Notes: generated by a model from the letters alone, not told the origin. A stretch of 64,000 bases of DNA from an uncultured Acidobacteriota bacterium (GCA_963822445.1 CAWGHO010000001.1:416001-480000), one strand, 5' to 3'; counted from the stretch's first letter, positions 1 to 3,617 are shown. Made by a program: numbers and translations.

Positions 1-211
1 GATGACCCGACTTCGAGTAGGCGGAGATGTAGTCGGTGACCGGGCACGCCAGGTGTCACGTCACCGGGATGTACGCGACGTTGAGCTTCCGCTCGCTCTC
101 CGGCAGCCGGTCATTGAGCAGCACCGTCCAGTCGACGTTCGCGGTCATATGCGCCGCGGTGATGAGAACTACCCAGGCCGCGATCATGTAAGCGATTTTG
201 CGCGATGTCAT
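1..211 (-). CDS. ABC transporter substrate-binding protein, 5' part, with in-frame TGA (putative selenocysteine) at codon 52; runs off the window
   Basis: RBS GGGAGGTG, then ATG at 211. Hand translation: MTSRKIAYMIAAWVVLITAAHMTANVDWTVLLNDRLPESERKLNVAYIPVT-TGA(56-58)-HLACPVTDYISAYSKSGH. Hydrophobic N-terminus; follows the permease/ATPase/permease genes on the same strand. Not in the ORF track. Confidence 0.75.
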
Positions 212-231
212 TTGTTCACCTCCCTTCGGTC

Positions 232-308
232 GAGTTACGGGGTTTCGAGGTTACGGGGTTACGGGGTTTCTCCTCCTCGTAACCTCGTAACCCCGCAACC
301 TCGAAACC
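232..308. repeat. Hairpin of tandem 8-mers (GGGTTACG-type left arm, CGTAACCC-type right arm)
   Basis: GAGTTACG GGGTTTCG AGGTTACG GGGTTACG ... CTCGTAAC CTCGTAAC CCCGCAAC CTCGAAAC; same family as 37597-37686. Confidence 0.85.
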
Positions 309-1033
309 TAATCATTGAACGCCCACCTCACCCTCCTCGCCTTCTCCATCCTCTGAATGGCCATGTCCAGTGCGAGGCCGATCACTCCGATCAGGAGCAT
401 TCCTCCGACGACCAGGTCATAGCGCTTGCCCGCGTTGCGGGCGTCGATGATGAGGTAGCCGAGGCCGGAGTCGACGGCGATCATTTCGGCGGCGACGAGA
501 ACCAGCCAGGCCACGCCGAAGGCGATGCGCAGGCCGACCACGATGCGCGGGAGGATGGCCGGGAAAATGACCCGGACGATCAGCGCGCCCGTCGAGAGGC
601 CGAAGTTGCGGCCGGCCTGCACGTACATCGGCGGCACGTTGCGCACGCCGTTCATCGTCGCCACCACGATCGGGAAGAACGACGCCAGGAAGATCAGAAA
701 AATCGGCGCGAGATTGCTGACGCCGAACCAGATCACCGCGAGCGGCATCCAAGCCAGCGGCGAGATCGGCCGGAGCATCTGGATGACCGGATTCGCCGCG
801 CGCGAAAGGGCACTCCACCACCCCAGGGCCAGGCCGGTCGGCACGCCGAGGATCACCGCGGCGAGGTAACCGCTCCCGACGCGGAAGAGCGAGTCGGCGA
901 TGTACGCGGCGAGATGCGGCAGCTCGCGGAGGCCTTTGAGCACGTCCAGCGGCGACGGAAAGATCGTCGTGCCGGTCAGAAGAACGGCCGTCTGCCAGAT
1001 GGCGATCACGATCAATGGCACGAGCACTCTCAT
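308..1033 (-). CDS. ABC transporter permease, SsuC/TauC/NrtB type
   Basis: Hydrophobic; LRPISPLAW, EAA-like loop, VAAEM..GLG motifs. Confidence 0.9.
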   Translation of the reverse strand: MRVLVPLIVIAIWQTAVLLTGTTIFPSPLDVLKGLRELPHLAAYIADSLFRVGSGYLAAVILGVPTGLALGWWSALSRAANPVIQMLRPISPLAWMPLAVIWFGVSNLAPIFLIFLASFFPIVVATMNGVRNVPPMYVQAGRNFGLSTGALIVRVIFPAILPRIVVGLRIAFGVAWLVLVAAEMIAVDSGLGYLIIDARNAGKRYDLVVGGMLLIGVIGLALDMAIQRMEKARRVRWAFND

Positions 1034-1794
1034 ACCTGGTGGGCCAGTCCGATCTCGCCGAAGATCTCATCGCGGCAGGCGATGTAGCGCGGGTCGCTGA
1101 GATCGCGGGGATGCTCGATGCCCACGTCCACGATCCGCTGCACGCGGCCGGGGCGGGCGCTGAGCACGACCACGCGATCGGCGAGCTGCACCGACTCCTC
1201 GATGTCGTGCGTCACGAACAGAATCGTCTTGCGCTCGGCCTCCCAGATCCGCAGCAGTTCGCGGCGCATCTGCAACCGCGTGATCGAATCGAGCGCGCCG
1301 AACGGCTCGTCGAGATAGAGCACGTCGGGATTCACAGCCAGCGCGCGGGCCACTTCCAGCCGCTGCTTCATGCCGCCGGACAGCTCGCGCGGATACGACT
1401 TCTCGAATCCGCGCAGGCCGACCATGGCCACGTAATGCGCGACCCGCTCGCGCTGCTCCTTCTCATCGAGGCGGAAGAGACCGAAGGAGATGTTCTGCTC
1501 GACGGTGAGCCACGGAAAGACGCCGCGCTCCTGGAAGACGAAGATGCGGCGCGGATCCGGCTCGGTGACCCGCTCGCCGTCGATCGTCACCTCTCCCTCC
1601 GTCGGCGTGATGAAGCCGCCCACGATGTTCAGCAGCGTCGATTTGCCGCAACCCGACGGGCCGAGGATGCAGACGAATTCGCCTTCGTGGACGTCGAGGG
1701 TGATGTCGTCGAGGACGCGCATGCCCGCAAGGGCATCATGGCCAACGGCCCCGAAGTTCATCCCCACGTTGCGGAAACGGACCTTGGTCGTCAC
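1030..1794 (-). CDS. ABC transporter ATP-binding protein, SsuB/TauB type
   Basis: GPSGCGKST, LSGGMKQR, YLDEPF, VTHD; GTG start overlaps the upstream permease stop (GTGA). Confidence 0.92.
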   Translation of the reverse strand: MTTKVRFRNVGMNFGAVGHDALAGMRVLDDITLDVHEGEFVCILGPSGCGKSTLLNIVGGFITPTEGEVTIDGERVTEPDPRRIFVFQERGVFPWLTVEQNISFGLFRLDEKEQRERVAHYVAMVGLRGFEKSYPRELSGGMKQRLEVARALAVNPDVLYLDEPFGALDSITRLQMRRELLRIWEAERKTILFVTHDIEESVQLADRVVVLSARPGRVQRIVDVGIEHPRDLSDPRYIACRDEIFGEIGLAHQV

Positions 1795-2547
1795 TCGGCC
1801 GCGTACCCCCAGCGCACACCCGGCAATCGCTCGAAGCGGCGCATGATCAGATCGAGGACCACTCCGATCAGGCCGATGAGGATCATTCCGGCCACGACCA
1901 TGTCGTAGCGATTGCCGGCATTGCGCGCGTCGATGATCAGAAATCCGAGTCCCGAGCTCACGGCGATCATCTCCGCGGCCACGACCACCAGCCAGGCGAT
2001 GCCGAGGGTGATGCGCATGCCGACGAGGAGCTGAGGGAGGATGGCCGGGAGCACGACGTTGCGGACCAGCTCGCGGTGCGTGAGACCGAAGTTGCGGCCG
2101 GCGGCGAGATGGATGCCCTCGATGTTGTGCACCGCGTGAATGGTGGTCAGGGTCAGCGGAAGCGCCGAGGCGAGGAAGATCAGGAAGATCGCGGCGGTGT
2201 CGCCGACGCCGAACCAGAGGATGGCGATGGGGATCCAGGCCAGCGGCGAGATCGGCCGCAGGAGCTGCAACATGCGGGTTGATCGCCATCTCGCCGCGGC
2301 GCCAGAGGCCGAGGAGAACGCCGGCCGGAACGGCGATGAGGAGCGCGGCGAGATATCCCCAGGTCACGCGATAAAGCGAGGCCACCACGTAGCGGAAGAG
2401 CAGGCCGCGCTCGGCGAGCTCGACGATCGCGCGCGCCGCTTGCGCGGGCGTGGGAACCAGCGTCCCCGCCGACCAGGCCACCGCGAAATGCCAGGCGGCC
2501 ACGACCAGAGCGAGACCCGAGAACGGAAGGAGATACCGCGAAAACAT
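1791..2547 (-). CDS. ABC transporter permease, second paralog; frameshift near 2275
   Basis: N-half MFSRYLLPF..AINP lies in ORF 1030..2619 and C-half MLQLLRPISPLAW in ORF 1791..2273; one extra base, probably a sequencing error. Confidence 0.85.
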
Positions 2548-2618: not shown

Positions 2619-2634
2619 CGGCACCTGCTTTGCT
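2619..2634 (+). promoter_or_regulatory. Putative sigma54 -24/-12 promoter for the REC-GGDEF gene
   Basis: CGGCAC-CTGCT-TTGCT (GG-N10-GC). Confidence 0.5.
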
Positions 2635-2665
2635 CCCGTGCCCGCCGATGGCGACGCGTGACGAG

Positions 2666-3617
2666 ATGCCCTCGAGACGAAAAAACGATTACGAGCCCGA
2701 GTCCCTCCCCCTTCGCGTTCTTGCGGTCGACGACGACGGTTCCTATCTGCGCCGTCTGAAACTCGTCCTGACGCGCGCCGGTTTCGATGTGACCACGGCC
2801 GATGACGGCGCCACGGCCATCGAGCGCATTCGCGCCGATCGCGACATCGCCGTGCTGGTCAGCGATCTGTCCATGCCGGGCATGGACGGCATCGAGACCG
2901 TTCGCCGCGCCCGCGAAGCGTCGGCGTTTCCCGGGCTGTACACGATCCTGCTCACGGCGACGGATGGCGTCGAGGTGAAGCTTCGCGCGCTCGACAGCGG
3001 CCTCGATGATTTTCTGACCAAGAGCTCCTCGGACTCGGAGATCGTGGCCAAGCTGCGCAGCGCCGCACGGCGTTTGACGATGGAGCGGCGGCTGCAGGTC
3101 GAGAACGAAGAGCTGCAGACGCTGGCCCTCACCGACGAGCTGACCGGCGTCGCCAATCGGCGCGCCCTCTTTCGCGAGGCCGACGCCGATTCTCGGAGCG
3201 GGACGCGGCTTGAGCGTGGTGCTCTTCGACCTCGATCGCTTCAAGCACGTCAACGACACGTACGGTCACCTGATGGGCGACCGCATCCTCGCCGACGTCG
3301 CCGCCGCGCTGAAGCTCGACACGCGCGTCGGAGACGTGATCGCGCGCTACGGCGGCGACGAGTTCGTGCTCTTGCTGCCCGATACGCGCGGCGACGAAGC
3401 ACGGGCCATCACCGGGCGCATCGTGCGGCGGATTTCCGATCTGCGCTGGGTGATGGGGGACTACGTCGTGACGTCGAGCGTGAGCACGGGCGTGGCCACG
3501 TCGGGATCGGCGAGCACGATCGCCACGCTGCTCGCGGAGTGCGACGCGCGGCTGTACGAGGCGAAGAACGCGATGGATGAGGAAGAGGACGAGCGGGATC
3601 TTCAGTTGCCGATCTGA
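2666..3617 (+). CDS. Response-regulator diguanylate cyclase (REC-GGDEF); frameshift near 3190
   Basis: REC (VLAVDDD, SDLSMPGMDG), DELTGVANRR, then DLDRFKHVND and YGGDEF in the next frame. Confidence 0.88.

Follow-up and report, generated by a model that had tools for sequence, protein, structure and literature searches.

The window, by which we mean the whole stretch of DNA analysed here (64,000 nucleotides from the genome of an uncultured Acidobacteriota bacterium, G000:C1:416001-480000), carries at its first bases the genes of an ABC transporter on the minus strand, the last of which, for the substrate-binding protein, runs out over the window edge. The features to which we refer throughout are as follows.

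1..211, minus strand: 5' part of the binding-protein gene (codons 1-70), which continues beyond the window to G000:C1:415147
29..47, minus strand: putative minimal SECIS hairpin, spanning +12 to +30 as counted from the U of the UGA
44..46, minus strand: codon of Cys56, the partner Cys of the U-x3-C motif, invariant in 23/23 aligned family members
56..58, minus strand: in-frame TGA, codon 52, predicted selenocysteine (Sec) codon in the motif PVT-U-HLACPVTD
211-209, minus strand: start codon ATG, by direct sequence reading
217..224, minus strand: Shine-Dalgarno-like GGGAGGTG, 5 nt 5' of the ATG, by direct reading
234..308, no strand assigned: palindromic repeat of ~75 nt (GGGGTTTCGAGGTTACGGGGTTACGGGG... 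and its complement), between the permease-2 and binding-protein genes
308..1033, minus strand: ABC permease 2 (BPD_transp_1)
1030..1794, minus strand: ABC ATP-binding protein
1791..2547, minus strand: ABC permease 1, broken by one extra base near 2275, its parts 2547-2281 and 2273-1791 lying in different frames

The initial annotation, made before any database search, had reported a ribosome-binding site with an ATG at 211, a frame reading NVAYIPVT-TGA-HLACPVTDYIS that stays open to the window edge, and a permease-ATPase-permease set upstream, and had proposed a hidden selenoprotein. Direct reading of the minus strand bears out the first three of these claims: GGGAGGTG at 224-217 precedes the ATG, the translation runs MTSRK...NVAYIPVT-TGA-HLACPVTDYISAYSKSGH with the TGA at 58-56, and a permease, an ABC ATPase and a second permease are found upstream. 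The frame is open to window base 1 and then for 284 more codons in the flanking DNA, the full ORF having 354 codons with the single TGA read through (L001 647..1711). The predicted peptide across the site is ..IPVT-U-HLACPVTDYISAYSK. Three of the orthologues considered below (L044, L050 and L051, in genomes G005, G015 and G013) lack an ATG, GTG or TTG where the start codon normally lies, 52 codons ahead of the Sec codon.

The gene order (permease 1, ATPase, permease 2, binding protein) is the same in 10/10 extended loci of relatives, and the subfamily at 41-48% has one permease gene. Between permease 2 and the binding-protein gene there are about 100 nt here versus about 17 nt in relative L056, a gap too short for the palindromic repeat. 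The repeat has 76 matches in the genome (both strands counted; 72-88% identity), spread over all three contigs, and looks like a REP-like element family.

Permease 1, broken here at ..AACCCG-C-ATGTTG.., is single-frame in 10/10 relatives, and two contigs of run X2 lack the extra base at 2275. Within 1 kb of this break there is a second indel, in a response regulator-GGDEF gene (2630-3617, plus strand) whose receiver part (2630-3157) and GGDEF part (3210-3617) are out of frame with each other here and share one frame in relatives L057, L059 and L065. Given that the GGDEF gene is also out of frame, we consider assembly indels likely; should the permease-1 frameshift be genuine, this strain may lack a working transporter. 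Such breaks invite the suggestion that the TGA is itself an assembly or sequencing error of this genome, the more so as no public run provides source-sample reads of the stretch: among public sequencing runs none contained the whole of it (best share 0.13), no RNA dataset containing it was listed, and contigs from four metagenome runs, compared with the window, proved to be relatives' pieces only, with none shown over 56-58. However, the nearby breaks are indels with no substitutions among them, as the initial annotation had remarked of the lesions other than the TGA, and 27 further genome assemblies show this very TGA, so it is not a private sequencing error. We find an error at this codon scarcely credible.

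The other neighbours of the operon, in addition to the response regulator-GGDEF gene, are genes for a Rieske protein, an FG-GAP/ASPIC protein and a GH3 protein, and these three, all downstream, are not conserved with it. The Rieske [2Fe-2S] gene (387 residues, L066 9984-11147, plus strand) converges on the binding-protein gene so closely that no spacer separates their stop codons. Large FG-GAP/ASPIC-UnbV proteins, often with TPR, are encoded within a few kb of the operon in this genome (L066 7528-10257, plus strand, with a weak N-terminal match to NQR2_RnfD_RnfE) and at L088, L089 and L091. We considered the FG-GAP/ASPIC protein as a clue to the substrate and rejected it: it is found near the operon here and at those three distant loci, but is absent near the operon in 10 close relatives, and we therefore treat the proximity as chance.

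Alternation of TGA and cysteine codons among orthologues

In existing databases the gene is mostly cut short. We searched 5.8 billion proteins and examined the best 120 clusters; 94 of these are of 279-301 residues and begin without exception beyond the site, in most cases with the GTG of Val58, while the remaining 26, of 349-359 residues, all have Cys at the site. The gene call that already exists for this genome is the 279-residue form (P0007). The 94 short clusters lack the first 57-75 residues, and with them the export signal and the predicted ligand-binding Sec. Source names are 'ABC transporter substrate-binding protein' or 'NitT/TauT family', the source taxa are Thermoanaerobaculia, Acidobacteriota and Bryobacteraceae MAGs, and the related contigs come from soil and sediment metagenomes.

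Were these gene calls correct, the TGA would be a real stop, leaving either a pseudogene or a 51-residue peptide followed by a 297- or 279-residue protein made from an internal start. The 94 of 120 clusters so annotated, this genome's own call included, count in favour of such a reading, as does the weakness of the SECIS candidate described below. Set against it is the reading of the orthologous loci themselves. At the DNA level, column 52 is TGA in 28 and TGC or TGT in 15 of 43 orthologous loci, and the context in all 43 is PVT-[U/C]-[H/Q]-L-[A/T]-CPVTD. The initial annotation had looked to homologues for Cys or TGA at this column, and these are the two states present, with Cys in 26/26 full-length database proteins. 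It is worth noting that two of the loci come from unpublished genomes, L031 (G002) with Sec and L054 + L061 (G030) with Cys; with these left out, the counts are 27 TGA and 14 Cys, and the gene order is kept in 9/9 loci.

The TGA form is not confined to close relatives. Searching 41 genomes (40 relatives and the genome itself), we found full-length orthologues with one TGA in 22 further members of the genus and in a single genome from a different family; two orthologues had no stop. In a phylum sample of 401 genomes, 21 matched at E 1e-60 or better, six with the TGA and 15 without a stop; among the six are representatives of another three genera of the family and a genome belonging to another class. 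TGA forms therefore span the genus itself, three other genera of its family, another family of the order and another class. Recurrence of TGA at an identical column exceeds chance by far, and 28 loci in several genera and two classes would not all retain a nonsense lesion at one column.

Conservation of the protein on the two sides of the codon bears on the same question. Ten of the eleven residues of RKLNVAYIPVT, immediately before the TGA, are invariant in 23 genus members, and nine of those codons vary synonymously; with residues held fixed while their codons drift, translation must cross the TGA in frame. Purifying selection acts both before and after the site. Moreover, a truncated product would be without the N-terminal helix and the first beta strand, and the Cys homologues are encoded by one uninterrupted ORF. 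For these reasons we regard a genuine stop at codon 52 as very improbable.

A maximum-likelihood tree (56 rows, site masked, quick method, the 41-48% subfamily as outgroup) requires seven changes between Sec and Cys, at least three of which are forced by well-supported branches. Two Cys forms are nested in a Sec-rich clade, and one Sec form is nested among Cys forms.

An open frame across the TGA is equally what any TGA-reading code would give, so that the codon could be read as Trp, Gly or Cys, by near-cognate read-through or under an altered code. Yet TGA is the ordinary terminator in 14/26 of these same genes, from which it follows that the genetic code is not reassigned, and the only residue that alternates with the TGA at the column is Cys; neither Trp nor Gly occurs there. 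Decoding of this kind seems to us more improbable still than a genuine stop.

Selenocysteine machinery and the sequence 3' of the TGA

Of the Sec machinery that the initial annotation had named for a check (selA, selB, selC and selD), all four components are present in the genome above curated cut-offs: selA at 488.6 bits, selB at 368.6 bits, selD at 371 bits and tRNA-Sec at 71.1 bits, the last also called by ARAGORN as tRNA-SeC with anticodon tca. A second match to the tRNA-Sec model (L023, G000:C2:1231624-1231709), at 49.5 bits against a gathering score of 47, could represent either a further selC or a tRNA with a long arm (Ser or Leu, for example).

The selD gene itself has one TGA, in the motif GGUACK, and a molybdopterin-family gene (PF00384; L085, G000:C3:471967-473565), in our reading that of the alpha subunit of a formate dehydrogenase, contains a TGA with a 7-bp hairpin after it, GGUGCCC-GGUCU-GGGUACC. 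These are the other two in-frame TGAs of the genome that we examined, and both, the second with its canonical SECIS, fit Sec, which argues further against read-through or an altered code at codon 52. The selD locus (L018, G000:C2:1710833-1711771) has a GGUCA-GGA-UGACC hairpin 3' of its UGA, so that selD and the formate-dehydrogenase-type gene provide clean local examples of a SECIS.

Across genomes, selD occurs in 304/401 of those sampled versus 19/21 of those bearing the transporter, a tally that also takes in the unpublished genomes G087, G185 and G030. Two genomes with the Cys form (G136 and G240; 99% complete) are without selD, and thus the transporter is not tied to selenium use. We likewise found selenium use unsupported as a clue to the substrate on the basis of this tally.

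The sequence 3' of the codon is less clear-cut. The initial annotation had seen no canonical SECIS, and we too find only a weak two-part hairpin after the UGA; the short stems that it offered in its place (GGCG/CGCC and CCGACT/AGTCGG) are not kept in relatives and are abandoned here. Numbering from the U of the UGA, the lower stem of the candidate hairpin pairs G12-U13-G14 with U28-A29-C30 (GUG/UAC). The upper stem, of 3 bp, takes one of two registers, either C16-C17-G18 with C23-G24-G25 around the loop GUGA or C17-G18-G19 with C23-C24-G25 around the loop UNA, the register being set by the wobble base of Thr59. The apical loop (GUNA or UNA), at +19/+20 to +22, carries G19 and U20, and the MFE of the hairpin is -3.6 kcal/mol in this genome and -2.0 to -5.3 kcal/mol across loci. 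According to the available text of PMC13188914, the bSECIS model has an apical loop of 3-9 nt with G in its two initial positions, an upper stem of 4-16 bp, a spacing of 16-37 nt and an MFE of -7.5 kcal/mol or lower. The position of our loop (15-16 nt after the UGA) and its G19 and U20 fit this model, whereas the 3-bp upper stem and the range of MFE across loci do not.

Lower and upper stems together are possible in 25/28 Sec loci versus 1/15 Cys loci, and the upper stem in either register in 28/28 versus 11/15, a contrast that is suggestive only, because most Sec loci are closely related to one another (23 belong to one genus, and there are 16 distinct 39-mers) and are not independent. The 28 Sec loci all agree at wobble positions 15, 18, 27, 30 and 39; among the Cys loci positions 15, 18, 27 and 39 vary, and position 30 is C in all 43. 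Synonymous entropy over codons 55-64 is 0.285 versus a gene mean of 0.77, making this the seventh-lowest sliding window (of ten informative codons) and not the lowest in the gene. No real compensatory covariation was seen in the hairpin, and RNAalifold on 24 Sec sequences gave -2.64 kcal/mol and no strong conserved hairpin 3' of the UGA. Rfam returned no SECIS family in the 451 bases around the site at a permissive E-value, or in the whole window at gathering score, the only matches obtained being chance matches of the palindromic repeat to miRNA models. A 9-mer, GUGCCCGGU, is common to the site and to the formate-dehydrogenase SECIS, but we rejected it as a signal, as it is not enriched: the genome has 39 copies, four of them with a TGA 8-16 nt upstream, which by a hand estimate from base composition is about what chance would give.

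The proposal of a hidden selenoprotein is thus supported by the TGA/Cys column in 43 loci and by the Sec machinery of the genome, and we hold with high confidence that Sec is inserted at TGA codon 52. Recruitment of SelB would then fall to the short hairpin at 12-30 nt past the UGA, a stretch shared with the codons for Cys-Pro-Val-Thr-Asp-Tyr.

Fold of the binding protein and a predicted metal site

The full-length protein scores 111.4 bits on Pfam NMT1_2 (PF13379; cut-off 24.7), and remains below the cut-offs of NCBIfam SsuA_fam (TIGR01728; 122.5 against 163.5 bits) and TIGR01729 (50 against 304 bits). An AF2 model built on a 23-row alignment (pLDDT 84.3, pTM 0.82) has the two-lobe binding-protein fold, with an N-terminal helix at residues 3-25, a strand at 43-47 and a helix at 58-65; the loop between these last two (48-57) carries U52 and C56, and pLDDT is 55-58 around residues 51-70. 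In this model the hydrophobic N-terminal helix (residues about 3-25) is predicted to be a signal or anchor. The top Foldseek match is 3UN6, from S. aureus and titled zinc-bound (TM 0.89, rmsd 2.4); the matches listed further include SsuA, TauA, NrtA and CmpA, and also Thi5, PqqT and DszB. The best PDB relative by sequence is again 3UN6 (HMMER, E 6.2e-22 over residues 27-332), and in that alignment U52 stands opposite His and Cys56 opposite Leu.

Among 23 family members down to 41% identity, the invariant positions are C52, C56, H119, R120, S148, S151, E197, P198 and C225. We also aligned the wider superfamily in 59 rows, namely the query and 58 of the best 150 representatives, the other 92 having been dropped for lengths of <280 or >480 residues. 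Position 52 is Asp in 22 of these rows, Cys in 11, His in nine and a gap in 11, and residues kept around it are His53 (32 rows), His119 (51), Arg120 (54), Glu197 (52) and Cys225 (45), the position of Cys56 being mostly Leu (23/59 rows). Asp, Cys and His alternating at one site beside a fixed His and a fixed Cys is, as far as an alignment can tell, the pattern of a first-shell metal ligand. On the strength of this alternation at residue 52 beside the conserved His119 and Cys225, we lean, by somewhat more than an even chance, towards Sec52 being a metal ligand in the binding pocket. The initial annotation had proposed a site for a soft metal, a metalloid or a sulfur or selenium ligand, and a soft-metal or chalcogen binding site is plausible; the alternation of Asp, Cys and His in relatives and the zinc-bound structure 3UN6 both speak for it. 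It is important to note that the metal role draws on the alignment and on the title of the 3UN6 entry, and that, while U52, His53, Cys56, His119 and Cys225 are conserved, the loop around residues 51-70 is modelled at low pLDDT.

There is a second way in which Sec, once inserted, might be used. Sec52 and Cys56, one helical turn apart, could form a selenenylsulfide, whose role would be redox or covalent: to trap, by exchange, a substrate carrying a thiol, persulfide or selenide, or to protect the site in the oxidising periplasm. The U/C-x3-C spacing, invariant in all 23 aligned family members, fits this well, and most of the bacterial selenoproteins known serve in redox chemistry and have a Cys close by, according to the available text of PMC1794560 and PMC13188914. 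Among the structural neighbours is also DszB (Foldseek rank 48), an enzyme of the same fold, the listed entry being a complex of its C27S mutant. However, Cys56 is limited to the close subfamily, with Leu prevailing in the superfamily; the residues that alternate at position 52 are those of metal ligands and not of redox sites; and the operon has no thioredoxin-like or reductase partner. We therefore consider a redox or covalent role unlikely.

Our overall reading, which we consider probable, is of a Sec-decoded TGA in the gene for a 354-residue binding protein of a four-gene ABC importer, with Sec in a metal site. Decoding of TGA codon 52 as Sec would yield the full-length, 354-residue protein, a membrane-anchored or secreted binding protein serving an importer of permease, ATPase, permease and binding protein. 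In this fold Sec52, in the loop after the first beta strand, would line the ligand cleft, where with His119 and Cys225, and in this subfamily also Cys56 and His53, it may form a metal site like that of 3UN6. As a ligand outside the cytoplasm, Sec would be softer and more acidic than Cys and would better tolerate oxidation. What is transported may be a metal ion, or else an anion bound on the metal.

The latter option can be taken a step further. The protein might be a metallo-receptor, with a metal held permanently on Sec52, His119 and Cys225 (and Cys56), which captures or transforms its substrate on that metal; candidates for that substrate are oxyanions of sulfur or selenium and soft metalloids. 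The Cys2His zinc site of beta-carbonic anhydrase, which binds its anion, offers an analogy. We put this forward as a speculation, and a rather doubtful one. Of our data, the 2/21 transporter genomes without selD argue only against a strict tie of such a receptor to selenium use.

Relation to known binding proteins and selenoproteins

A widespread gene of soil and sediment Acidobacteriota is, then, systematically mis-annotated, 94 of the 120 best clusters having been cut at the N-terminus. The binding-protein selenoproteins in the table of a 2026 review are SaoX, SaoB and BtuF only, as far as the available text extends (PMC13188914), and corrected annotation would add one more selenoprotein family to that table. 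The same text has no match for UxxxC, PF13379, PF09084 or TauA. The accessible portions of BSepDB and deep-Sep make no mention of such a family, and full-text literature searches on selenoprotein ABC, substrate-binding or sulfonate proteins yielded nothing else relevant; a supplementary listing is possible in each case. We conclude that this is an uncatalogued selenoprotein family among the Sec-containing ABC binding proteins, with the proviso that an earlier supplementary listing is possible. It extends Sec in such proteins to a further lineage and to a further site in the sequence, and the several Sec/Cys switches within one family amount to a natural experiment on why Sec is used over Cys outside the cytoplasm.

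The closest precedents for Sec in an ABC binding protein are SaoX and SaoB, described with SaoP by Haft & Gwadz, whose available text states that no earlier Sec-bearing ABC subunit was known to its authors (bioRxiv 10.1101/2022.07.06.499078). From what can be seen of that account, SaoX is, like our protein, a NitT/TauT-type ABC binding protein, with cleft Cys residues proposed to bind metal, one of which is Sec in rare members. Our protein, however, reaches only 59.2 bits on the SaoX family (NF040735), below the cut-off of 300, and the Sec of SaoX is described as lying in a CC/CU motif elsewhere in the sequence, unlike the U-x3-C after strand 1 found here. The nine-gene SAO locus (SaoL, SaoE, SaoT and others) is absent here, and SAO hosts, in the same account, are strict anaerobes, whereas the close homologues of our protein are named Thermoanaerobaculia or Acidobacteriota, and related contigs derive from soil and sediment metagenomes. 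SaoB, as described there, resembles our case in having Sec in the predicted pocket of an ABC binding protein and in having been truncated or split by gene callers; but it comes from another lineage of binding proteins, with 3VVE/4ZV2 as relatives, and its motif is a CU dipeptide. For the binding protein here, NCBIfam returned no SaoB (NF040727) match.

Two other groups are related in part. SsuA and TauA (TIGR01728, TIGR01729) share the fold, the Pfam clan and the ABC partner family with our protein, but their family cut-offs are not reached, and the alignments returned have no Cys/Sec-His motif after strand 1. The Sec form of the cobalamin-binding BtuF is likewise an ABC binding protein listed as a selenoprotein, but it is of an unrelated fold class (cd01144) and has a CxxU motif, according to the available text of PMC13188914.

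The nearest relative by both sequence and fold is 3UN6, which has the GH(R/H) and EP motifs and the hinge Cys in common with our protein, and differs in having His in place of Sec and Leu in place of Cys56. In the available text of PMC6344411, 3UN6 is termed a metal-binding protein and a homologue of those binding proteins whose genes accompany clade B Ni-CODHs. For a 3UN6-like binding protein, that of PMC13592312 suggests, from an AlphaFold 3 model, that metal is bound by two Cys and one or two His, and raises the substrate of the CODH-linked members as an open question. In the accessible parts of these two papers there is no mention of a Sec form. Unlike the systems they describe, the operon here has two permease genes and the genome (94.7% complete) has no Prismane/CODH (PF03063) match, and we accordingly dropped a CODH link for this transporter. 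Sec at the Asp/Cys/His position of 3UN6-like binding proteins nevertheless connects the family to the substrate question raised in the available part of PMC13592312. If a metal is indeed held permanently at this site and captures the substrate, the Sec forms would be the first chemical handle on the substrate of 3UN6-like proteins, including those of the transporters that co-evolve with clade B CODHs.
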